A stretch of 61,920 nt of DNA from an uncultured Pseudomonadota bacterium (GCA_903959175.1 CAJBVW010000147.1:1-61920); one strand, 5' to 3'. Numbered from the stretch's first letter, positions 6,482-56,156 are shown. Made by a program: numbers and translations. The notes: generated by a model not told the origin, from the sequence alone.

Positions 6482-7063
6482 ATGTTGCTCAGCATGATCG
6501 TCGCGCTCGGGTGCGTGGGGGACGCGCCGCCCGGCGGGGATCGAAGCCTTCGCGCCGCCGGGAGCGGGGCCGTGCTGGCGCCCGCCGAGGCGACGCCGCG
6601 CGTCGCCTTCGCGTCGGTGGAGGGCCGCTCGGGGAGCGCGATGACGGGCGGCGTGACCTTCACCGCGGAGGGCGAGGCCGAGGAGGCGCCGCTCGCGGTC
6701 GCCATCGCGCTCACGGGCGCCGCTCCGGGAAACCACGCGATCTTCCTCCACGAAGCGGGCGACTGCTCCGCGCCGGACGCCACATCGGCCGCGGGGTGGT
6801 TCGGCCCGCCCACGCCGCCCGCGCTCCCCTCCCCCGGCACCGGCCCCCACGCCTCCGCCGGCCCCCCCGCGGGCTACCTCGGCTTCGTCACCGTCGGCGC
6901 GGACGGCCGCGGCGCCAAGGACCTCACCCTGCGCGCCTATACGCTCGGCGAGGGCCCCGCGTCGCTCCTGGAGCGGGCCGTCGTCGTCTACGAGCGGGCG
7001 CCGGACTTCACGCGCGGAGAGCAGCCCGGGGCGCGGCTCGCCTGCGGGGTGATCCGGCGCTGA
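6482..7063 (+). CDS. Cu/Zn-superoxide-dismutase-like lipoprotein with a degenerate metal site
   Basis: SD aggag lies 6 nt before ATG 6482. Lipobox MLLSMIVALGC. SodC-like blocks GNHAIFLHEAGDCS and GARLACGVI. The expected H-x-GDL block reads PAGYLGF and the late His block reads VVVYERAPDF. Confidence 0.6.
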   Translation: MLLSMIVALGCVGDAPPGGDRSLRAAGSGAVLAPAEATPRVAFASVEGRSGSAMTGGVTFTAEGEAEEAPLAVAIALTGAAPGNHAIFLHEAGDCSAPDATSAAGWFGPPTPPALPSPGTGPHASAGPPAGYLGFVTVGADGRGAKDLTLRAYTLGEGPASLLERAVVVYERAPDFTRGEQPGARLACGVIRR

Positions 7064-7075
7064 TCCACCTGCGGA

Positions 7076-8572
7076 CTACAGGATCACCGACTCCTGGTAC
7101 TCCCCGAACACGGCGCGGAGCGCGTCCGCGACCTCCCCCAGCGTCGCCTTCGCTTCGATGGCGGCGAGGATCGGCGGGAGGAGGTTGTCCGTGCCCGACG
7201 CGGCCTGCTGGATGGCGTCGAGGTGGTCCCGCGCGATGCGCTCGGCGCGGCCGGCGCGGAAGGCCTTGAGCCGGCCGACCTGCTCCGCCTCGAGGGCCGG
7301 ATCGACGCGGAGGAGGCCTTCGACCTGCACGTCCTCCTCGACGAACTGGTTCACGCCCACGACGATGTCCTGCTTGCGGTCGATGGCGAGCTGGGCCGCG
7401 TACGCCGCGTTCTGGATCTCGCGTTGGGGGAAGCCGCGCTCGATCGCGGACACCATGCCGCCCATCGCGTCGATCTCGGCGATGAGGCGGGTGGCCTCGT
7501 CCTCGAGCTTGTCGGTCAACCCCTCGATGACGTAGCTGCCGCCGAAGGGATCGACGTGTTTGGACACGCCGGACTCATAGGCGATCACCTGCTGCGTGCG
7601 GAGCGCGAGCCGCGCGGCGGGCTCCGACGGGAGCGCCAGGGCCTCGTCCCGCGAGTTCGTGTGGAGCGACTGCGTGCCGCCCATCACCGCGGCCATCGCC
7701 TGCACCGTCACGCGGACGACGTTGTTGTCGATCTGCTGGGCGGTGAGGGTGCTTCCGGCGGTCTGCGTGTGGAACCGCAGCATCATCGAGCGCGGGTCCT
7801 TCGCGCCGAAGCGGTCGCGCATGATGTGTGCCCACATGCGACGCGCCGCGCGGAACTTCGCGATCTCCTCGCAGAAGTCATTGTGCGCGTTGAAGAAGAA
7901 GGAGAGCCGCGGCCCGAAATCGTCGACGTGCTGGCCGGCGGCGATGGCTGCGTCGACATAGGCGATGCCGTCCGCCAGGGTGAACGCGATCTCCTGCGCG
8001 GCGGTCGAGCCGGCCTCGCGGATGTGGTAGCCCGAGATGGAGATGGTGTTCCACTTCGGGGCGTGCACGCCGCACCACGCGAAGATGTCGGTGATGATCC
8101 GCATGCTGGCGCGCGGCGGGTAGATGTAGGTCCCCCGGGCCATGTACTCCTTGAGGACGTCGTTCTGGATGGTGCCCTTGAGCGCGGTCGTCGGCACGCC
8201 GCGCGCACGTGCAACGCCGGCGTAGAGCGCCAGTAAGGTCGACGCCGTCGCGTTGATCGTCATGCTCGTGCTCACCTGGTCGAGCGGCAGCTTGTCGAGC
8301 AGGACGTGCATGTCGTCGAGAGTGTCGATCGCGACGCCGACCTTGCCGACCTCACCCGAGGCCATCGGATGGTCGGAGTCGTACCCCATCTGGGTGGGCA
8401 GGTCGAAGGCGACGGAGAGGCCGGTCTGGCCCTTCTCCAGGAGGTAGCGGTACCGCTCGTTGGAGCGGCGCGCGTCGCCGAAGCCGGCGTACTGGCGCAT
8501 CGTCCAGAGGCGGCCCTGGTACATCGTCGGGTGGATGCCCCGGGTGTACGGGAACGTGCCGGCGGGCTCCAT
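7076..8572 (-). CDS. Methylmalonyl-CoA mutase family, catalytic (TIM-barrel) subunit without a B12-binding domain
   Basis: [47 protein letters not shown] and [15 protein letters not shown] 8572 overlaps the BCCP stop (TGATG). About 498 aa, ending [11 protein letters not shown] before any B12 (DxHxxG) domain. Confidence 0.85.
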
Positions 8573-23952: not shown

Positions 23953-24074
23953 CGGATTCACTCGTGGAGGGCCACTTTGAACCGCGGGGACGCCCGGCGC
24001 AAGGTGCAACTCCGTGGGCGCGTAGCGTGCGGCACAACGGTAGGCCGGTGGCTATATTCGGGCTACGGAGCCGT

Positions 24075-26090
24075 GTGGACGCCGCCCGCCCCTCGAGCCG
24101 CGCGAATCGACGGGGTCCCGCCCTCGCCCGGCTCCTGATCTACCTCGCCTGCTCGGGGACGCTGCACGCCGCCCCCCTGCTGCTCTGGCCGGAGGGCGCC
24201 CCGGGCGAGGGAGCGGAACCCCTGCCGACGCGGGTTCAGCTGCTCGATCTTGCCGAGGAGGAGGCGCTCGAGAGCCGCCCGTCCCCCGTCCGTCGCCCCG
24301 AGGGAGCGGCGCGCGAGGAGCCCGCGACGGCGGCCACACCGGCGGGATCGCCCCGGTCCGCGCCGCCTGCCGCGCCCGCCACGCCCTCGGCCGCAAAGCC
24401 GTCGGGGGCCCGCCGCGCGCCGAACCCCCCGTCCGCGATGCCTCGCCCCGCGGAGAAGCCGGAGGGCGCCGAGAAGCGAGTGACGACGGAGAGCGCGGCG
24501 ATCGCCGAGAGGGCGGAGAAAGCAGACACGACCAAGGAGAAGCCGTCCCCGAAGCGCGCGGAGCCCGTCGTCGCGATCGACCGAACCGACGTCCGGCAGG
24601 TGAAGGCCTCGACGGCCACGCCGGCGGAGCGCACGGCGAAGGCGCTCACGGACAAGGCGCGCGCCGACGCCTCGGCGCCTACCACGCGCCCGCCCGACGC
24701 CGAGACGCCGCGGAGCCGGGTCGAGCCGCCCGAGACGACGGAGGCGAAGCCGGCGGTGAAGGCGACCGCCCCCGCGCGCTCCGCTCCGGTACCCGCGGCG
24801 CCCGCCCCGAAGCTCGTCGCCCCCACGCTCCCCGTCCCGCCGGGGGAAGCGGCGGCCCCGGTCCCGGCCGCCCCGCGCCCCCCGGCGCCCGCGGCGCCAC
24901 CCCCATCCGAAGCCGCGCCCAAACCGCCCCCCGCGCCCCCCGACGCGCGTGCGTCCGAGACGACCGAGCTCCGCGAGCGCGCCCAGGACGTACGACGCGA
25001 GGCGGCGGCGGCCCCCCCGCAGCAGGCGAACGCCGGGCGCGGCAGCGGCGGCGGCGCGGCCCAGGAGTGGCTCCCGTTCGTGCGGAGCGAGGGCGCGGCC
25101 AGCGGTAAGGCCAACGGCGACGCCCGGTACATCAGCGACCGCGACAAGAGCGCACCCGAGGACACCCGCGCCAAGGCCAGCGTGACCCGCTCCAACGGCG
25201 ACGGCACCGGGGACGCCGAGATCGCCGAGCGCACCGCGCCGAGCACGCGGCCCGTCGTCGCGGTCGACCGCCCCGAGGCGGCCCCGGCCACGCCGCCGCC
25301 GAGCACGCGCGCCCGCTCGGTCGCGACGACCACTTTGTCGCCGGAGCCCACCTCGAGCGTGGCCCTCCCCTACCTGGCGCCGTCGCCGGCCCCCGCGTCC
25401 AGCGCCTCTCCGGGCGGCATGCGCCTGTCCGCCGGGGAGATCCCCGAGATCGCCGAGCCCCTCGCGCGCGGAGACGAGGCCGCCGCCGCCCCCCCGCTCC
25501 GCGCCCGCGTCCCCAAGGCGAGCAGGCGCCCCATCCGAGCGCCGGTGGTCCCCGCGTCCGCCGAGCCTCCCTCCGCCGCGCCGCTCGTGGCCGCCCCGCC
25601 CGCCCCGATCCGCCCCGCGCTCGCGGACGACTTCTGGGCCTCGACCGCCCCGGACACCGCCCCCGTCGGGCCCGTTGCCGCGCCGTCCAGCGAGACCGCC
25701 ATCATGACGCAGAACGACATGTCGGCGCAGGGCTGGTCGGACCTCGCCATCCTCGACGAGCGCGCCGCCCTCGCCGACACCGCCGCCTACGGCGCGCGCG
25801 CGCACCCGCTGGGCGCCTGGCTCACCGTGGTCGACGACCAGATCCGCCAGCGCTGGATCTACCCGCCCGCGCTGCGCGCCCTCGGCCAGCAGGGCACCGT
25901 CGTGGTGCGCTTCTACGTCGCTCGCAGCGGGCTCGTGACCCAGGCCCAGGTCCGCGCCGGATCGGGCTGGCCCGACCTCGACCTCGCGGCGCTCTCCGCG
26001 GTGCCGGCGCACGTCTCCGCGATGCCGCCGGGGAACGGCAGCGGGGTCTGGTTGCAATGGACCTTCCGGTACCGGGCCGACCGACCGTGA
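24075..26090 (+). CDS. TonB-C-domain protein with a very long Pro/Ala/Glu-rich linker
   Basis: In-frame GTG 24075 with ggag upstream. N-terminal TM helix LARLLIYLACSGTLHAAPLLLW. About 500 aa of low-complexity P/A-rich sequence. C-terminal GTVVVRFYVARSGLVTQAQV...PDLDLAALSAV...WLQWTFRYR. The start is uncertain. Confidence 0.65.
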   Translation: MDAARPSSRANRRGPALARLLIYLACSGTLHAAPLLLWPEGAPGEGAEPLPTRVQLLDLAEEEALESRPSPVRRPEGAAREEPATAATPAGSPRSAPPAAPATPSAAKPSGARRAPNPPSAMPRPAEKPEGAEKRVTTESAAIAERAEKADTTKEKPSPKRAEPVVAIDRTDVRQVKASTATPAERTAKALTDKARADASAPTTRPPDAETPRSRVEPPETTEAKPAVKATAPARSAPVPAAPAPKLVAPTLPVPPGEAAAPVPAAPRPPAPAAPPPSEAAPKPPPAPPDARASETTELRERAQDVRREAAAAPPQQANAGRGSGGGAAQEWLPFVRSEGAASGKANGDARYISDRDKSAPEDTRAKASVTRSNGDGTGDAEIAERTAPSTRPVVAVDRPEAAPATPPPSTRARSVATTTLSPEPTSSVALPYLAPSPAPASSASPGGMRLSAGEIPEIAEPLARGDEAAAAPPLRARVPKASRRPIRAPVVPASAEPPSAAPLVAAPPAPIRPALADDFWASTAPDTAPVGPVAAPSSETAIMTQNDMSAQGWSDLAILDERAALADTAAYGARAHPLGAWLTVVDDQIRQRWIYPPALRALGQQGTVVVRFYVARSGLVTQAQVRAGSGWPDLDLAALSAVPAHVSAMPPGNGSGVWLQWTFRYRADRP

Positions 26091-47908: not shown

Positions 47909-48442
47909 TCAAGTGCGGTTGAAGAACTCGTCTTCGGGGTAGCCGCGGGCCGACGGCACCTCGCCGCGGGGAGAGGCCTCCGAGCGCGTCGGGTCGGGGG
48001 CGGCGGCGGGCGCCACCACGCGCGGTTCGGGACGCGAGAGCGCGCGGGGCTTGGCGTCGTCCGCCTTCGGGGCGGCGCGCGTGGCGACCGGCGGCGGCGG
48101 CACGACGGGCGGCGGCGGCACGACGACGGGCTCGTCCACCACGACCACCTCTTCCTCCTCCTCCGCGGCGGCGGCGGGCGCGGCGGCGGCGAGCGCGGTG
48201 CCGGCGGATGGCGCGGCGACGGGCTCGGAGGACACCGGCGTGAGCGCCCACTCGGCTTCGAGCACGCGGATCGCGCTGAACGCGGTGACGGCCTCGAGGC
48301 CGACCTCGGTGGTGAGCTTCCGCGCGGCCTGGTACCCAGTGATCGTCACCGTGGGCGCGCCGCACGTCGGGCACGTCCGGTTCTGGATGGCGAAGGTGAA
48401 GGCCGCCGGGACGCGGTGGCCGTAGAGGCAACGATGATCCAT
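47909..48442 (-). CDS. Zinc-ribbon-like protein with a Pro/Ala/Glu-rich tail
   Basis: MDHRCLYGH...CPTCG at the N-terminus, then an acidic stretch (EEEEEVVVVDE) and PPPPVVPPPP. The start lies 7 nt after the upstream stop, and the SD gaggaa overlaps that stop. Confidence 0.55.
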   Translation of the reverse strand: MDHRCLYGHRVPAAFTFAIQNRTCPTCGAPTVTITGYQAARKLTTEVGLEAVTAFSAIRVLEAEWALTPVSSEPVAAPSAGTALAAAAPAAAAEEEEEVVVVDEPVVVPPPPVVPPPPVATRAAPKADDAKPRALSRPEPRVVAPAAAPDPTRSEASPRGEVPSARGYPEDEFFNRT

Positions 48443-51041: not shown

Positions 51042-51395
51042 TCAATCCCCGTCCCGCACCTTCCCGCGCCCTTCCTTGACCTGGGCGCGGTTCCGCTTGC
51101 CCTCGTGGCGCCGCTCGCGGGACCCTCGGGTCGGCCGGGTGGGGCGACGCTTCGGCGGGGGCGGCGCGCGCAGGATACCCAGCTTCTCCCGGAGACGATC
51201 GAGCGCGACGCCGATGTTCTGCGTGCGGCTCCGGCGCTCGGACGCCTGCACCGTGATGCCCGTCGGGCGGTGGAACAGGCGCACGCCGGTCTCGGTCTTG
51301 TTGCGGTGCTGGCCGCCGGGGCCCGAGCCGCGGAAGGCCTCGAGATCGCAGGCGTCGAGCAGGACGTCGTCGTCCTCGGGGACGAGGTTCGTCAC
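51042..51395 (-). CDS. arfB: ArfB-like peptidyl-tRNA hydrolase / ribosome-rescue factor (GGQ domain plus basic tail)
   Basis: FRGSGPGGQHRNKTETGVRLFH, then a basic tail KRRPTRPTRGSRERRHEGKRNRAQVK. The GTG start overlaps the upstream stop (GTGA). Confidence 0.8.
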   Translation of the reverse strand: MTNLVPEDDDVLLDACDLEAFRGSGPGGQHRNKTETGVRLFHRPTGITVQASERRSRTQNIGVALDRLREKLGILRAPPPPKRRPTRPTRGSRERRHEGKRNRAQVKEGRGKVRDGD

Positions 51396-52621
51396 GGGGA
51401 CTCCGGGGCGGAGGGCGGCGGCGACGGGGCCACGGGGACGGCGGGCGTCGGGAGCGCAGGGAGCTCGGAGGGGTCCTTGCCGAGGGCCACCAGCTGCCCC
51501 GCGATCCAGGCGTGGACGGCCTCGAGGCCGATCGGGCCCGGCGCGAGCTGGGGGAGCGGGTCGAAGGCCACGGGGAGGAAGGCATCCTCTACTGCGCCGA
51601 GCTTCCCGCGGGCGTCGGCGAGGTAGCGGTCGCGGTCGCGCGCGCGCAGCACGTCGACCTTGTTCACGAGCGCGAGCACGGGCTTTCCCGTCGCGACACA
51701 GCGTTGGTAGTCCGCGAGCTCACGGGCCTGCACGCCGCCCTCGGCGTTGACGATGTAGAGGTAGAGGTCGATGTGGTCGAGGACCTGCCGGGCCTCCTCC
51801 GTCACGCTCTCCATCACGTCGCCCAGGCCGGGCGTGTTCACGATGAAGAGGGCGGTCGCGCCGGGGAGGCGCTGGATCGCGACCTCCTTCGTCGAGCCCG
51901 CGATCGGCGAGATGTTCCCGGTGTCGATGCCGAAGAGAGCCTTGATCCCGGCGTCCTTCCCGGTGGAGGGGCTGCCGACCACGCCGATGGTGACGCGGTG
52001 GAGCACGCGCTGCCGGATGCGCGCGACCTCGAGCATCACGGCACCGACCTGCTCCGGCGACGGGCGGAGCGCGCGCCACGCGAAGTAGGGCACGAAGAGC
52101 GGCAGCACGGGGCGGGCGAGGCAGCCGAGCGGCGTGAGGAAGAGGGAGCCGACGGCGAGCCAGCCGATCGGACGGATGACGTACGTCAGCCCCGTGACGG
52201 CGTAGTCGAAGGCGCGGCCGAGGCGCTCCCGCGCGACGCCCGCCGCCTCCGCCGCGGCCTCCGGGGGGGCGTCCTCGAGGCCGAGGTCCTTCCAGACGCG
52301 CTCGCGCTCCTCCGGGGTGGCCTTCTCCCATCGGGACGCAAACCAGCTCCGCGCCAGCGCGAGCTCCGTTTCCTCAGGCTCTCCGGGGGTGATTCCTCGC
52401 TCGCGAGCGGCGTCCGCGAGGACGAGCTCGTAGGGGCGCCCGTGCCCGCCGCGGGCGACGTTCCCGATGCCGTGGCTCCCGATGCGGCGCACCTGCCCCG
52501 CGAGGATGCGTGCGAGGTCGCCGAGGCCGAGGCCGTCGGGGTTCACGCGCAGGAGCTGGGCGAGGGAGAGGAGCTCCGCGCGGTGCGCGCGGTGGAGCAT
52601 CCGCTCGAGCGGATCGTTCAC
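51392..52621 (-). CDS. Membrane-associated GTPase (N-terminal helical domain, 2 TM helices, C-terminal GTPase)
   Basis: G1 GSPSTGKD, G3 NTPG, G4 NKVD. Hydrophobic hairpin IRPIGWLAVGSLFLTPLGCLARPVLPLFVPYFAW. It is a paralog of the upstream GTPase. The GTG start overlaps that gene's stop (GTGA). Confidence 0.7.
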   Translation of the reverse strand: MNDPLERMLHRAHRAELLSLAQLLRVNPDGLGLGDLARILAGQVRRIGSHGIGNVARGGHGRPYELVLADAARERGITPGEPEETELALARSWFASRWEKATPEERERVWKDLGLEDAPPEAAAEAAGVARERLGRAFDYAVTGLTYVIRPIGWLAVGSLFLTPLGCLARPVLPLFVPYFAWRALRPSPEQVGAVMLEVARIRQRVLHRVTIGVVGSPSTGKDAGIKALFGIDTGNISPIAGSTKEVAIQRLPGATALFIVNTPGLGDVMESVTEEARQVLDHIDLYLYIVNAEGGVQARELADYQRCVATGKPVLALVNKVDVLRARDRDRYLADARGKLGAVEDAFLPVAFDPLPQLAPGPIGLEAVHAWIAGQLVALGKDPSELPALPTPAVPVAPSPPPSAPESP

Positions 52622-53745
52622 GCGCCCTCGGTGTGCTTCTTGTAGTCCCAGGCGGCGGCGTCGAAGACGCCGCGGAGGGTCTCCACGTCGATCGTGCGGT
52701 CGGACTGGAAGAACTTCACGGCCGCCCGGCCGATGCCGTAGGTCGTCCCGCCGGCGACCATCGCGGAGAGGCCGAGGATCGCGGCCTCCGCGATCTGTCC
52801 GCCGGGGATCCAGCCCGCGGCCTTGAGGCCGTTGACGCCCCAGCGCAGGAAGCCGCGCATGCTGCCCGAGAGGACCTCACCGATGATGAAGAGCGCGACG
52901 TCGCGGTCGATGGGGGCCTCGAACACCTCGGCGATGTCGCGGATGAGCTTGACCTGGATCGCGGTCACCGCGGCGAGGTCGGCCCCGGGGATGGGCACCG
53001 CGCCCACCACCGACGCGTTGCGTGCCGCGGCGCGGAGGATCGGCTCGCAGGCCACCGCCTTGTTGCGGAGGTGCTTGGCGAACAGGAGCTCCTTGCCGGA
53101 GGCGTGGAGCTGCTCGTGGATCCAGGTGATCACGCCCTCGACGCCGATGGGCTCCTCGGAGAGCTGCGGCAGCGGGTCGAACGCGCAGACGACGGCGTCC
53201 TTGCGGTCCACCCCGAGCTGGGCGAGCGTGGCGGCCACGAAGGTCTCGCGCTGGTGCGGGCGGATGAGGTCGATCTTGTTGATGGCGACCAGCACCGGGC
53301 GGCCCTTGGACCGCACGAGGTCGAGGTCCTTCTTCTCGTCGATGGTCGCGCCGCCCTCGGCGTTGACGACGTAGACGACGATGTCGAGGGTGTCGAGCGC
53401 GCGGCGGGAGAGCTCGTCCACGTCGGGGCGCACGTCCCCGAAGCCCGGCGCGTTCACGAGGAGGACCTGCCCGTCGGCGTCGAGCGGCGCGACGCGCAGA
53501 CGCACGGTCGAGCCGGGGATCGGGCTGATGTCGCCGAAGTCGATGCCGAAGAGGGTGCGGATCGCCGAGTCCTTGCCCGACGACGCCGAGCCGAGGAAGG
53601 CGACCGTCAGGTGCTTCGAGAGCGCCTCGCGGAGCGCGGTCTCGCTCTGTTGCCACGCGGCTACGCCGTGGGCGCGTACCGAGGCGCGCACGTCGTTCTG
53701 GACCGCGAGCCCCTGATCGTCACGTTCGTTGCGGGAGTCTGGCAC
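52618..53745 (-). CDS. GTPase fused to a C-terminal DUF697-like membrane-associated domain
   Basis: G1 GSASSGKD, G3 NAPG, G4 NKID. C-terminal GAVPIPGADLAAVTAIQVKLIRDIAEVF...GLSAMVAGGTTYGIGRAAVKFF resembles DUF697/YcjF-type domains, as recalled. GTG 53745 with ggagg upstream. Confidence 0.7.
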   Translation of the reverse strand: MPDSRNERDDQGLAVQNDVRASVRAHGVAAWQQSETALREALSKHLTVAFLGSASSGKDSAIRTLFGIDFGDISPIPGSTVRLRVAPLDADGQVLLVNAPGFGDVRPDVDELSRRALDTLDIVVYVVNAEGGATIDEKKDLDLVRSKGRPVLVAINKIDLIRPHQRETFVAATLAQLGVDRKDAVVCAFDPLPQLSEEPIGVEGVITWIHEQLHASGKELLFAKHLRNKAVACEPILRAAARNASVVGAVPIPGADLAAVTAIQVKLIRDIAEVFEAPIDRDVALFIIGEVLSGSMRGFLRWGVNGLKAAGWIPGGQIAEAAILGLSAMVAGGTTYGIGRAAVKFFQSDRTIDVETLRGVFDAAAWDYKKHTEGA

Positions 53746-53807: not shown

Positions 53808-55532
53808 CTACCACTCCGCCCCGGCCATCACGCTGCGGGCCACCGCGCGGAGCTCCAACATCCGGAACGGCTTGGACAGGACCGCCCGCGCTCCGGCCGC
53901 CAACGCCGAGCGCGCGAGGCCGTCGGGGGCCGCGCCCGTCGCCACCAGGATCCGCAGCTTCGGCCAGCGCACCTGCGCCTCCTGCATGACGTCGAGGCCG
54001 TTGCGGTTGGGCATGCGGAGATCAAGCACGAGGAGGTCAACCTCTCCGTCGAGCTCGGCGAGGCGGGCGAGGGCGACCTCTCCGTCCCGCGCCTGGAGGA
54101 CCTCCGCGAACATGCCCTCCAGCGCCACGCTCATCAGCTCGCGGAGCGGGGCGTTGTCGTCCGCCACGAGCACCCGCCGCCAGCCCGACGCGGCCTCCGC
54201 GCGACGCGGCGCGCCGTGGCCCGGGACGACCTCGGCGATGGGCGCGCGCACGCAGATCGCGAGGCGGCCGTCGCGCTCGTCCTCCGCCTGGAGCTGGACC
54301 CCGCCGCCGTAGGCCCGCGCGAGCAGCTCGTTCACCAGCGGTCCGGTCACCGCGCCGTCCGGCACCAGCCAGCGGAGCGCGGCGCGCTCGGACGCGGTGG
54401 GCGTGTAGCGGATCCGGAGGAGCCCCTCGTCGTACTCCTCGAGGGCCTCGATCACCACGGGAGAGCCGGGCGCCACGCCGTCGAGCGAACGGAGCGCGAG
54501 GTGGATGCAGGCGCGGACGAGCGCGTCGGGCGAGCATGCGACCCACGGGCCGGCCTTCGGGGCCACGACCTCGATCCGCGGCCCCCCCTCCCCCGCCGCG
54601 CGCGCGAGGAGCTCGCCGAGATCCCGCGCGACCCGGCCCATGTCCGCCGGGCCCACGTGGTTCCCGGAGGTGGACAGCGCCAGCATCGTGCGGCCCAGGC
54701 TCCCGAGCGTGCCGGCGACGCCGATCACGCGCTCGATCGCGGCGCCGGCGGAGGCGGGGTCGTCCGACAACATCGCCTGATCGCAGACCGCTACGATCTC
54801 CGCCGCGAGGTTGTTGAGCTGGTGGGCGTGGTCCCCCGTGACGCGCGAGAGCAGGCCGACCGCGTGTTCCAGGCTGCGGAGGCGCTCGATCTCGCGGTCC
54901 CCGGTGGTGTCGCGCAGGGTCGTGACGAAGTGGGTGGTGCGGCCCTCGGCGTCCCGGATGCCGGAGACGGTGTGGTGCACGGGCACGTCCACCCCGTCGG
55001 AGCGGCGCAGCTGCGTGGGGCCGCTGTAGGTGCCGGTGGCGTAGAGGCTGCGCCAGTAGCTCTCGATCTCGCGCGGCGGCACATTGGGGCTGCGGTAGAG
55101 CCGCGCGGGGCGCCCGACGACCTCGGCGCGATCGTAGCCGACGAGCCACGCGAAGGTGGCGTTGCACCAGAGGATCACGCCGTCTGGATCGGTGAGCAGC
55201 CACGCGTCCGAGCTGCGCGCCGTGTGGGCGAGGAGGAGCTGCCCGAGCTCGGCCTCCCCCGCGAGGGGGGCCACACGCTCGAGCTTGAGACGCGCGCCTG
55301 AGGCCCCGGCAGCGACCTCGACGTCGAAGGCCATCCGCTCCGTGCCGCGGCCGAGGGCAAACCGCACGGCGCCCGCGCGACGGCCGATCGCCGCGCGCAC
55401 GTCCGTCCGACGCTCCAGGAGACGCTCGAGGCCGACCACGGGCGGGTCGAAGGAGACGAAGAGCTGCGCCACCTCTTCCGAGCGGCGCAGGATCCGGCCC
55501 TGGTCGTCGACCTCGAGCCAGAGCGCGCTCAA
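53808..55532 (-). CDS. Hybrid PAS sensor histidine kinase with a C-terminal receiver domain
   Basis: PAS-like LLTDPDGVILWCNATFAWLVGY. H-box GDHAHQLNNLAAEI. Receiver VLVADDNAPLRELM...DLLVLDLRMPNRNG...SKPF. The TTG start directly follows the grpE stop (TAGTTG). Confidence 0.75.
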   Translation of the reverse strand: MSALWLEVDDQGRILRRSEEVAQLFVSFDPPVVGLERLLERRTDVRAAIGRRAGAVRFALGRGTERMAFDVEVAAGASGARLKLERVAPLAGEAELGQLLLAHTARSSDAWLLTDPDGVILWCNATFAWLVGYDRAEVVGRPARLYRSPNVPPREIESYWRSLYATGTYSGPTQLRRSDGVDVPVHHTVSGIRDAEGRTTHFVTTLRDTTGDREIERLRSLEHAVGLLSRVTGDHAHQLNNLAAEIVAVCDQAMLSDDPASAGAAIERVIGVAGTLGSLGRTMLALSTSGNHVGPADMGRVARDLGELLARAAGEGGPRIEVVAPKAGPWVACSPDALVRACIHLALRSLDGVAPGSPVVIEALEEYDEGLLRIRYTPTASERAALRWLVPDGAVTGPLVNELLARAYGGGVQLQAEDERDGRLAICVRAPIAEVVPGHGAPRRAEAASGWRRVLVADDNAPLRELMSVALEGMFAEVLQARDGEVALARLAELDGEVDLLVLDLRMPNRNGLDVMQEAQVRWPKLRILVATGAAPDGLARSALAAGARAVLSKPFRMLELRAVARSVMAGAEW

Positions 55533-56105
55533 CTACGCCTCCGCGACCGGCGCGGTGTAGCTCCCGATGACGACGCGAGCCGGCCGGATCAGGCGCTTCC
55601 CGATGCGGTATCCGGTGGAGAACACCGTCTGGATGACGCTGTCCTGGACGGGATCGTCGACCGGCTGGGTGGCGATCGCCTCGTGCAGGCCCGGATCGAA
55701 CGCGGCGCCGACACCGGGCACCTCTTCGAGCCCGAGCTTCTGCAAGGCGGCCATGAACTGCTGGTAGACCATCCGCAGCCCCTGCTCCGCCGGGAGCCCC
55801 TTGCTCGCCTCGAGCGATCGGTGGAGGTTCTCCACCGGGTCGAACAGGGAGCTGACGACCTCGCCGCGGCGGATCTCCTCCTGCATCGAGGCCCGATCCT
55901 CCAGGCGGCGCTTGGTGGACTCGATCTCGTCCTGCTTCTGGCGGTAGGCGGCGCTCACCGTGCGCAGGCGCGCCTCGAGCTCCTGGACCTTCGCCTCGAG
56001 CCGCGCGGTCTCGGACTCGACGAGCGTCACGCCCTCGGCCCCGCTCTCTTCCTCGACAGCGGCGCCGGCCTCGTCGTGTTCCGCTTCGTCTCGTGTTTCG
56101 CCCAA
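55533..56105 (-). CDS. grpE: Nucleotide exchange factor GrpE
   Basis: Coiled-coil LEAKVQELEARLRTVSAAYRQKQDEIES and C-terminal FDPGLHEAIATQP...VIQTVFSTGYRIGKRLIRPARVVI. Start inferred as TTG 56105 with ggagg 7 nt upstream, because there is no in-frame ATG. Confidence 0.85.
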   Translation of the reverse strand: MGETRDEAEHDEAGAAVEEESGAEGVTLVESETARLEAKVQELEARLRTVSAAYRQKQDEIESTKRRLEDRASMQEEIRRGEVVSSLFDPVENLHRSLEASKGLPAEQGLRMVYQQFMAALQKLGLEEVPGVGAAFDPGLHEAIATQPVDDPVQDSVIQTVFSTGYRIGKRLIRPARVVIGSYTAPVAEA

Positions 56106-56128
56106 GGGTCGCCTCCGTGTGCGGCGCG

Positions 56129-56156
56129 AGGATAGGCACGCGGGCGTTCCCGTCAA
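56129..56156 (-). promoter_or_regulatory. Candidate promoter upstream of grpE
   Basis: On the minus strand: TTGACG, a 16-nt spacer, then TATCCT. Read as CTTGACG-N14-GCCTAT it loosely resembles a sigma-32 promoter. It lies about 25-50 nt upstream of the grpE start. Confidence 0.3.

Follow-up and report, generated by a model that had tools for sequence, protein, structure and literature searches.

Organization of the locus

We studied a three-gene locus within a 61,920-nucleotide stretch of DNA from an uncultured Pseudomonadota bacterium (GCA_903959175.1, CAJBVW010000147.1:1-61920), this whole stretch being referred to hereafter as the window. The locus belongs to an uncultured lineage of Myxococcota. 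Two of the genes encode paralogous GTPases whose G1 and G3 motifs have changed together, and these two genes form a conserved, translationally coupled unit. The third encodes a putative ribosome-rescue factor of the ArfB type, the linkage of which to the pair is confined to one lineage.

The genes and their products are designated W1, W2 and W3; they lie on the minus strand, as do all window genes and motifs located below. W1 (52618..53745) is an open reading frame (ORF) of 375 amino acids (aa), with a long N-terminal helix, a GTPase domain and a C-terminal helical DUF697 domain. W2 (51392..52621; 409 aa) carries a diverged N-terminal domain of the YaaW/JukA (Cbp3-like) type, fused to a second GTPase domain, and W3 (51042..51395; 117 aa) encodes a predicted 'classical' ArfB-type peptidyl-tRNA hydrolase. 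The GTGA overlaps by which the initial annotation had joined the three genes were read directly from the sequence: the TGA stop codon of W1 and the GTG start codon of W2 share 52618..52621, and the stop codon of W2 and the start codon of W3 share 51392..51395. Both overlapping starts are preceded by a purine-rich stretch resembling a Shine-Dalgarno sequence.

A coupled change in the G1 and G3 motifs

The paralogy proposed for W1 and W2 was borne out by BLASTP, which aligned them over 182 aa without gaps at 42 % identity (E 4e-45). Both were recognised by the Pfam profile MMR_HSR1 (cut-off 21.9 bits), W1 with 33.0 bits over residues 47-157 and W2 with 35.8 bits over residues 211-321. The P-loop (G1) of W1 reads GSASSGKD (residues 52-59, 53569..53592), with Asp at the position of the Ser/Thr Mg2+ ligand, and its G3 reads NAPG (residues 98-101, 53443..53454), in which Asn replaces the Asp of DxxG. 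The corresponding motifs of W2, placed by alignment of its homologs, are GSPSTGKD (residues 216-223, 51953..51976) and NTPG (residues 262-265, 51827..51838). Neither protein therefore has a canonical G1 (GxxxxGK[S/T]) or G3 (DxxG). The guanine-specificity motif G4 is canonical in both, as NKID in W1 (residues 156-159, 53269..53280) and NKVD in W2 (residues 320-323, 51653..51664, likewise from the homolog alignment).

The register of these motifs was established with HMMER against Era (PDB 7c1o, 3iev). In this alignment GSASSGKD falls on GKPNVGKS (G1), PGST on AGTT (G2), LLVNAPG on IFLDTPG (G3) and INKID on INKID (G4), so that GKD and NxPG occupy G1 and G3. The NTPG of W2 likewise aligns with Era DTPG, and G4 is canonical as annotated. 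A hydrophobic residue directly follows G3 in both copies (NxPG-F/L), as in GTPases of the Era/MnmE type, which lack the catalytic Gln.

Both motif sets are conserved among homologs. Residues G52, G57, K58, D59, N98, A99, P100, G101, N156, K157 and D159 were invariant in 48 W1 homologs (58-82 % identity). In 53 W2 homologs (50-79 % identity), G216-D223 were invariant except at position 220, as were N262, T263, P264, G265, N320, K321 and D323. The G2 Thr (T80 in W1, T244 in W2) and the G4 motif were invariant or nearly so.

For a wider survey, an exhaustive search over cluster representatives returned 1694 matches at E <1e-3, 179 of them at <1e-10; 113 G domains sharing at most 50 % mutual identity were retained from the best 150 matches together with W1 and W2. 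Fifty of these belonged to the GKD class, and their G3 residue was Asn in 47 (94 %), Thr in two, Glu in one and Asp in none; the remaining 63 had GK[S/T], with Asp at G3 in 63 of 63 (100 %). The combinations GKD/D and GK[S/T]/N did not occur among the 113 domains, i.e. the two positions covary perfectly. The classes differ further at P-loop position 4: the GKD class has Ser there in 98 % of cases and Asn in none, and the canonical class has Asn in 46 %. Proteins with GKD/N form essentially one clade, to which W1-type and W2-type proteins alike belong. One GKD/N protein (P0122) has GKT/D proteins as its nearest relatives, at ~50 % identity, which implies that the coupled transition took place at least twice.

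This pattern is not one of decay: under strong selection, a carboxylate has moved from G3 to the P-loop with the charge conserved. The Lys, the G2 Thr, NKxD and the flanking residues are under strong purifying selection, and for this reason W1 and W2 are both most likely nucleotide-binding proteins that have not decayed. The suggestion that the two substitutions mark a distinct family was thus sustained by the Era alignment, by invariance among homologs and by the covariation across the 113 domains. Decay into pseudo-GTPases was considered and rejected, all motifs being invariant in both sets of homologs. A full-text literature search for GKD together with Walker A and GTPase found no paper describing GKD/NxPG. 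One W2-type representative (P0229, 392 aa) has a degenerate site, its G1 reading GGSDAGKE and its G3 region lacking PG, and is possibly an inactivated member.

Domain architecture of W1 and W2

The reciprocal domain orders annotated for the two proteins were recovered with Pfam, i.e. MMR_HSR1 followed by DUF697 in W1, and an N-terminal domain followed by MMR_HSR1 in W2. The DUF697 domain of W1 (PF05128; residues 232-351, 52693..53052) is an all-helical bundle that scored 45.2 bits against a cut-off of 27.7 (E 1.1e-11), and it had been annotated beforehand in nearly all the W1 homologs listed. The best 120 of 342 homolog matches were 58-94 % identical to W1, and more distant homologs have the same succession of G domain and DUF697 with canonical motifs (GK[S/T]/DxPG). 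In the AlphaFold2 model of W1 (predicted local distance difference test score, pLDDT, 85; predicted template modelling score, pTM, 0.84), the long N-terminal helix and the G domain are followed by a six-helix DUF697 (helices within residues 229-374). No dedicated study of DUF697 was found in a full-text literature search.

Foldseek searches with the full-length W1 model returned as top matches the immunity-related GTPase (IRG) Irga6, GM4951, IniA, BDLP and mitofusin, with TM-scores of 0.35-0.44 and root-mean-square deviations above 10 Å; the G domain alone resembles YsxC/EngB and Era. With a Dynamin_N score of 20.6 bits (cut-off 27), an IIGP score likewise under its threshold and TM-scores this low, membership of W1 in the dynamin or IRG families was rejected. 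Matches of W1 to the PADLOC models LeoA/LeoBC were weak, and its scores against NCBIfam slr1306 and TIGR01620 lay far under the cut-offs.

The N-terminal domain of W2 (residues 1-203, 52013..52621) was traced through its relatives. A W2-type clade with the motifs GDGSxGKD … N[YF]PG occurs in cultured Pseudomonas, Shewanella, Vibrio, Serratia, Pectobacterium, Azospirillum and Novosphingobium, and is named 'YaaW (UPF0174 family)/GTPase' at JGI. In the gammaproteobacterial fusions of this kind, the N-terminal ~230 residues match the PADLOC JukA model (E 1.2e-42), eight of 15 sequences match PF03981 (Ubiq_cyt_C_chap, the Cbp3 family; E down to 2.4e-6), and matches to stand-alone plasmid genes for 'DUF3944 domain-containing protein' were also found. 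When the N-terminal domains of myxobacterial W2 proteins were compared with those of the gammaproteobacterial fusions using hhalign, the two aligned over 193 columns with a probability of 99.5 % (E 3e-22). On these two sets of matches, W2 is a diverged JukA/YaaW-GTPase fusion and belongs to the fusions mentioned in the preprint on the Juk system. In W2 itself no match to PF03981 was detected, and neither W2 nor its N-terminal domain matched PF13099 (DUF3944), even at E up to 1.

In the anti-ΦKZ system Juk, infection is sensed by JukA, a homolog of the chaperone Cbp3, which helps cytochrome b to fold co-translationally; fusions of JukA to a 'Ras-like GTPase' receive one mention in that work, without further study (bioRxiv 10.1101/2022.09.17.508391). 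The initial annotation had described a helical N-domain followed by a hydrophobic hairpin. A separate domain does precede the GTPase; it is of the YaaW/JukA (Cbp3-like) kind, and a membrane hairpin is doubtful. The hydrophobic stretch (residues 137-185) sits within the JukA-homologous region and is modelled by AlphaFold2 as several short helices (pLDDT 90, pTM 0.84 for W2), and its hydropathy stays below the transmembrane threshold given below, so that membrane insertion of W2 is doubtful as well. Foldseek with full-length W2 returned matches for the G domain only and none for the N-terminal domain, and PDB sequences, searched with a profile of the JukA-like domain, gave nothing meaningful (FliG, E 0.2).

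Conservation of the GTPase gene pair

To follow the pair across genomes, a 13-sequence alignment of the W2 type was used as query against one genome per GTDB species, which returned 80 loci. Apart from evidently mislabelled records, these were all metagenome-assembled genomes (MAGs) labelled Myxococcota, Deltaproteobacteria or Proteobacteria. The mislabelled records (L019, L030, L070-L072 and others) have ~70 % GC and Myxococcota-type synteny, and are titled 'Klebsiella pneumoniae', 'Bifidobacterium breve' or 'uncultured Enterobacteriaceae'.

Upstream sequence was available for 74 loci, and in 68 of them the gene immediately upstream of the W2-type gene was of the W1 type; 42 of these 68 offer a W2 start codon that would overlap the W1 stop by 4 bp. 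A second deep lineage, 27 % identical to W2, keeps the same order with an 8-bp overlap. The conserved unit is therefore a translationally coupled module of two GTPase genes, and the tight coupling reported for the window extends to its relatives.

In the Myxococcota, the pair occurs at a single locus and the W2 gene tree tracks local synteny. The arrangement of a GrpE gene, the pair and a gene for a Glucodextran_B-domain protein reaches beyond the subclade in which arfB is present, which suggests that the module is chromosomal and vertically inherited there, and that it has a resident role in stress, envelope or proteostasis rather than in mobile defence. In four loci (L017, L019, L020 and L021), W2 is located at 7001-8200 and no W1-type gene lies within 7 kb upstream; the neighbours in L017 include a CarboxypepD_reg-domain protein and a CHAP/NlpC_P60 protein.

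W3 and its linkage to the pair

The third gene had been annotated as encoding a GGQ hydrolase with a basic tail of the ArfB type, and this identification was upheld. W3 scored 73 bits against the Pfam RF-1 profile (cut-off 35), the GGQ motif lying at residues 27-29 (51309-51317). Residues 78-117 (51045-51164) form the basic C-terminal tail, the part that in ArfB enters the mRNA channel. Residues 46-116 align to residues 69-138 of Escherichia coli ArfB, including RRPTRPTRxSxERR…RGKVR, and the GGQ core aligns unbroken to RF1/RF2 and C12orf65. About 23 residues present in E. coli ArfB (region 40-68) are missing from W3. As judged from these alignments, W3 is an ArfB-type protein without the αi insertion, a class termed 'classical ArfB' (Burroughs & Aravind 2019, PMC6514570). 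Its score of 69.8 bits against the NCBIfam ArfB equivalog NF006718, under the cut-off of 100, is attributed to the missing insertion.

A homolog of W3 was found near the pair in 12 of the 80 species loci, within ~100 nt of W2 in 11 of them and 1.6 kb away in one (L019). All 12 fall in one subclade of the W2 tree, inside which L015, L022-24 and L043 have no arfB; in L022-24 the flanking synteny is kept and the Glucodextran_B-domain gene directly follows W2. A GTGA-type overlap of W2 and W3 is present in six of the 12. The junction of W2 and arfB persists in L017, L020 and L021, where W1 and both flanks differ, and it does so only within this subclade; the operonic association is thus real locally and lineage-specific.

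No ArfB gene was found beside the GTPase genes in the second deep lineage or in the gammaproteobacterial relatives. In the reciprocal direction, none of the 80 best metagenome loci of classical ArfB (46-63 % identity, best 80 of more than 570 matches; ~45 of them with at least 1.3 kb of upstream sequence) contained a homolog of W1 or W2. The survey of gene neighbourhoods thus returned a conserved pair and an arfB adjacency restricted to one subclade, and a link between GTPases and ArfB is not supported as a feature of the family. We conclude that arfB was added to the operon in one subclade and is not a defining component of the module; a functional link of the pair to ArfB beyond that subclade is not supported.

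Gammaproteobacterial relatives

The gammaproteobacterial JukA-GTPase clade has no DUF697 partner. It is accompanied instead by a small, conserved protein with a Gly zipper and by a divergent RtcR/PspF-type σ54 activator, within defence islands that also hold a type I restriction-modification system, GmrSD, an OLD-family nuclease with a UvrD-like helicase, BrxR and an integrase. These relatives therefore look defence-associated. In Pseudomonas (L090, 4666-8239), Shewanella (L093, 4718-8257) and Pectobacterium (L095, 4775-8257), the Gly-zipper protein has 120-147 aa and no Pfam family and always precedes the GKD-type JukA-GTPase, and the σ54-dependent activator is transcribed divergently (PADLOC 'RtcR_PspF2--CARF_AAA_HTH', 1.3e-47). 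The set of three genes looks like an undescribed σ54-controlled island module. Downstream in the Pseudomonas locus (L090, 8380-12378) are genes for a Ribonuc_red_lgC-domain protein, a 207-aa protein without family match, an IIGP-like GTPase of 331 aa and an AIG1-like GTPase of 228 aa, which could be another GTPase-based island system.

Flanking genes in the window

The neighbours of the pair identified with Pfam were GrpE, a protein with PAS and receiver domains, ArfB and a Glucodextran_B-domain protein. The GrpE gene (55533-56132) and the PAS-receiver gene (53808-55532) abut each other (together 53808..56132), the end of grpE being the exact start of the next gene, which encodes 574 aa. A gap of 62 nt separates the PAS-receiver gene from the start of W1, and the three genes are possibly co-transcribed. 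This upstream arrangement is kept only in close relatives and is not part of the conserved module; in one relative (L009), the PAS-receiver gene is absent and grpE directly overlaps the start of W1. The central ~240 residues of the PAS-receiver protein, which separate its PAS and receiver domains, have no Pfam match and could represent a divergent histidine-kinase core.

Scans of the region for tRNAs, Rfam families, promoters and terminators gave nothing useful. Downstream of the Glucodextran_B-domain gene, a 177-aa ORF (47909-48442) has a CPTCG motif, a long low-complexity tail rich in Ala, Pro and Val, and no Pfam match. Elsewhere in the window, positions 24001-26000 have a GC content of 78.6 %, compared with ~72 % in the remainder, and a strong positive AT skew.

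Proposed function and alternatives

The reading that we consider probable, if by no great measure, is that of a coupled module of two paralogous TRAFAC/Era-like GKD/NxPG GTPases, one with DUF697 and one with a JukA-like domain, acting as a GTP-gated heterodimer to which arfB is an accessory. IRG and dynamin-like GTPases act by G-domain dimerisation. By analogy with dimerisation-activated GTPases devoid of the catalytic Gln, W1 and W2 would work together through their G domains. The JukA-like domain of W2 would bind a protein client or trigger, and the DUF697 domain of W1 would act at the inner membrane, providing a membrane-directed output. In the active site, the Mg2+-proximal carboxylate would have been relocated, GK[S/T] becoming GKD in the P-loop and DxxG becoming NxPG in G3.

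Several points weigh against parts of this reading. We infer heterodimerisation solely from paralogy, adjacency and coupling, and six loci (L017, L019-21, L043 and L065) have a W2-type gene with no W1-type gene within 7 kb, so that W2 can exist without an adjacent partner. The direct match of W2 to the PADLOC JukA model is weak (E 7.7e-4), and the homology relies on the transitive profile comparison. The fold matches of W1 to IRG and dynamin-like proteins are low. As for the membrane, the maximum 19-residue Kyte-Doolittle hydropathy of W1 is 1.56 and the range for the two proteins is 1.56-1.58, no window reaching the classical transmembrane threshold of 1.6; stand-alone JukA is cytoplasmic, being diffuse in the cytoplasm before infection (bioRxiv 10.1101/2022.09.17.508391). 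The DUF697 bundle of W1 may nonetheless be membrane-associated, and the label 'membrane' given to the two GTPases is plausible.

Alternatively, the pair could serve a Juk-type anti-phage or stress-sensing defence, the JukA-like domain of W2 sensing a factor derived from infection and the fused GTPase with the DUF697 GTPase forming the effector, e.g. at the membrane entry site. We consider this unlikely for the Myxococcota pair, where the single locus, the synteny with core genes such as grpE and a gene tree that tracks synteny are unlike the patchy distribution of mobile defence. The experimental demonstration that JukA (YaaW) senses infection by ΦKZ-like phages and the mention of Ras-like GTPase fusions (bioRxiv 10.1101/2022.09.17.508391) give this proposal its basis, and it is further favoured by the gammaproteobacterial GKD-type clade lying in defence islands beside a σ54 activator, by the immunity-related GTPases among the best fold matches of W1 and by its weak LeoA/LeoBC matches. 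The PADLOC scores of W1 and W2 are nevertheless not convincing, no JukB is present, no defence genes flank the pair in the window, and a search for W2 relatives in phage genomes found none.

Initially, the three genes had been proposed to act close to the membrane as a module for ribosome rescue or quality control. Its GTPases would then recruit or regulate ArfB on stalled membrane-bound ribosomes. Such a module is compatible with the overlap of W2 and W3 in the window and in half of the ArfB-bearing loci, and with a linkage of W2 and arfB that outlasts rearrangement of both flanks and loss of the adjacent W1 (L017, L020 and L021; in L019 arfB lies downstream at a short distance). The homology of the JukA family to the co-translational chaperone Cbp3, the closeness in sequence of the G domains to the ribosome-associated GTPases Era, Der and EngB, and the GrpE gene upstream in the same subclade point in the same direction. 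Ribosome rescue is nonetheless improbable as the function of the pair and is kept as a minority hypothesis: arfB is adjacent in few species, all of one subclade and with losses inside it, it is absent from the second deep lineage and the gammaproteobacterial relatives, and the nearest classical-ArfB loci carry neither GTPase. Moreover, ArfB is described as a single-component rescue factor whose only conserved neighbour is a pseudouridine synthase (PMC6514570).

That the GKD/NxPG proteins are inactive pseudo-GTPase scaffolds, or have switched to another nucleotide, is rated slightly lower again. Substitutions of the P-loop Ser/Thr and of the G3 Asp impair function in the Ras family, and both of these classical Mg2+-related positions are altered here; the sensitivity of the G3 position is also seen in MglA, in which restoring the Asp abolishes function (PMC3000849). 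Every other nucleotide-binding position, namely the Gly and Lys of G1, the Thr of G2, the PG of G3 and the NKxD of G4, is invariant in both paralogs, and the two changes are strictly coupled and charge-conserving in ~50 diverged representatives, which indicates selection on a working site. A switch to another nucleotide is countered by NKxD, which argues for guanine specificity. Least probable of all is a composite proposal, in which GKD/NxPG would be a new working active-site configuration and, in the subclade of the window, the JukA-type (Cbp3-like) GTPase would join with its DUF697 partner in a complex that surveys translation near the membrane, as it proceeds, and passes stalled ribosomes on to the classical ArfB translated along with the pair.

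Significance

Few residues of P-loop GTPases are as highly conserved as the G1 Ser/Thr and the G3 Asp. Here, a family present in several phyla, with ~50 representative clusters among the best 150 matches, has swapped these positions together, and the coupled GKD/NxPG swap offers a natural test of Mg2+ and nucleotide handling. We regard as real and moderately interesting what is new in this analysis, i.e. the GKD/NxPG variant of P-loop GTPases, an uncharacterised module of a JukA-GTPase and a DUF697-GTPase, and the JukA-like identity of the W2 N-terminal domain. The family ties together three poorly understood elements, namely DUF697, the JukA/YaaW sensor domain and the σ54-controlled islands of Pseudomonas, Shewanella, Vibrio and Pectobacterium, and its gammaproteobacterial hosts are tractable organisms for experiments. 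The ArfB link should not enter annotation as a functional association.

Comparison with known systems

W3 shares with classical ArfB (the C12orf65/mtRF-R-like branch, PMC6514570) the GGQ motif, a compact RF1/RF2-like core without the αi helix and the basic tail. For an ArfB gene, overlapping a GTPase gene is unusual, and the overlap seen here is confined to one subclade. The NCBIfam equivalog, below whose cut-off W3 scores, was built around the class 1 ArfB of the E. coli type.

IRG proteins (Irga6/IIGP1) and bacterial dynamin-like proteins (IniA, BDLP, DLP1/2, LeoA) gave the top matches to the full-length W1 model, and the bacterial dynamin-like proteins, too, can be paralogs arranged in tandem (title of PDB 5oxf). 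W1 and W2 are much shorter than dynamin-like proteins, and neither a stalk nor a paddle was identified. MglA, with TxxG for DxxG, is likewise a bacterial family with a family-wide replacement of the G3 Asp, in which reversion is deleterious, and its motif was described as unique among GTPases (PMC3000849). A Thr at G3 as in MglA also occurs in some GKD proteins of the second lineage. Unlike W1 and W2, MglA keeps the P-loop GKT and is a small single-domain Ras-like protein with the GTPase-activating protein MglB; it has no close sequence relation to either.

The TRAFAC GTPases of the Era/Der/EngB type are the best matches of W1 and W2 both in sequence and in G-domain fold, and have in common with them the hydrophobic residue after G3, the G2 Thr and NKxD. 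W1 and W2 differ from them in a G1 that ends in Asp and a G3 that starts with Asn, have no KH or other RNA-binding domain, and score far under the cut-off of all the equivalog profiles.

Canonical GTPase-DUF697 proteins, such as the slr1306 family, share with W1 the succession of an MMR_HSR1-type G domain and DUF697. The W1 clade is set apart from them by GKD/NxPG, by the lack of a P-loop Asn that roughly half of the canonical relatives possess, and by its pairing and translational coupling with a JukA-GTPase paralog. DUF697 is also present in the YcjF membrane protein family; in E. coli, YcjF is encoded beside the GTPase YcjX.

Relative to Juk, no JukB accompanies the pair, and W1 and W2 have a chromosomal, syntenic setting and not a defence island. 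The partner of W2 is a paralogous GTPase-DUF697 protein, not a small Gly-zipper protein with a σ54 activator. The N-terminal domain of W2 has strongly diverged from JukA/YaaW, in keeping with the missing DUF3944 and PF03981 matches. The closest likeness is to the JukA-Ras-like GTPase fusions, with which W2 shares the order of a JukA-like domain followed by a GKD/NxPG G domain, homologous N-terminal domains and G domains that belong to a single GKD/N clade.

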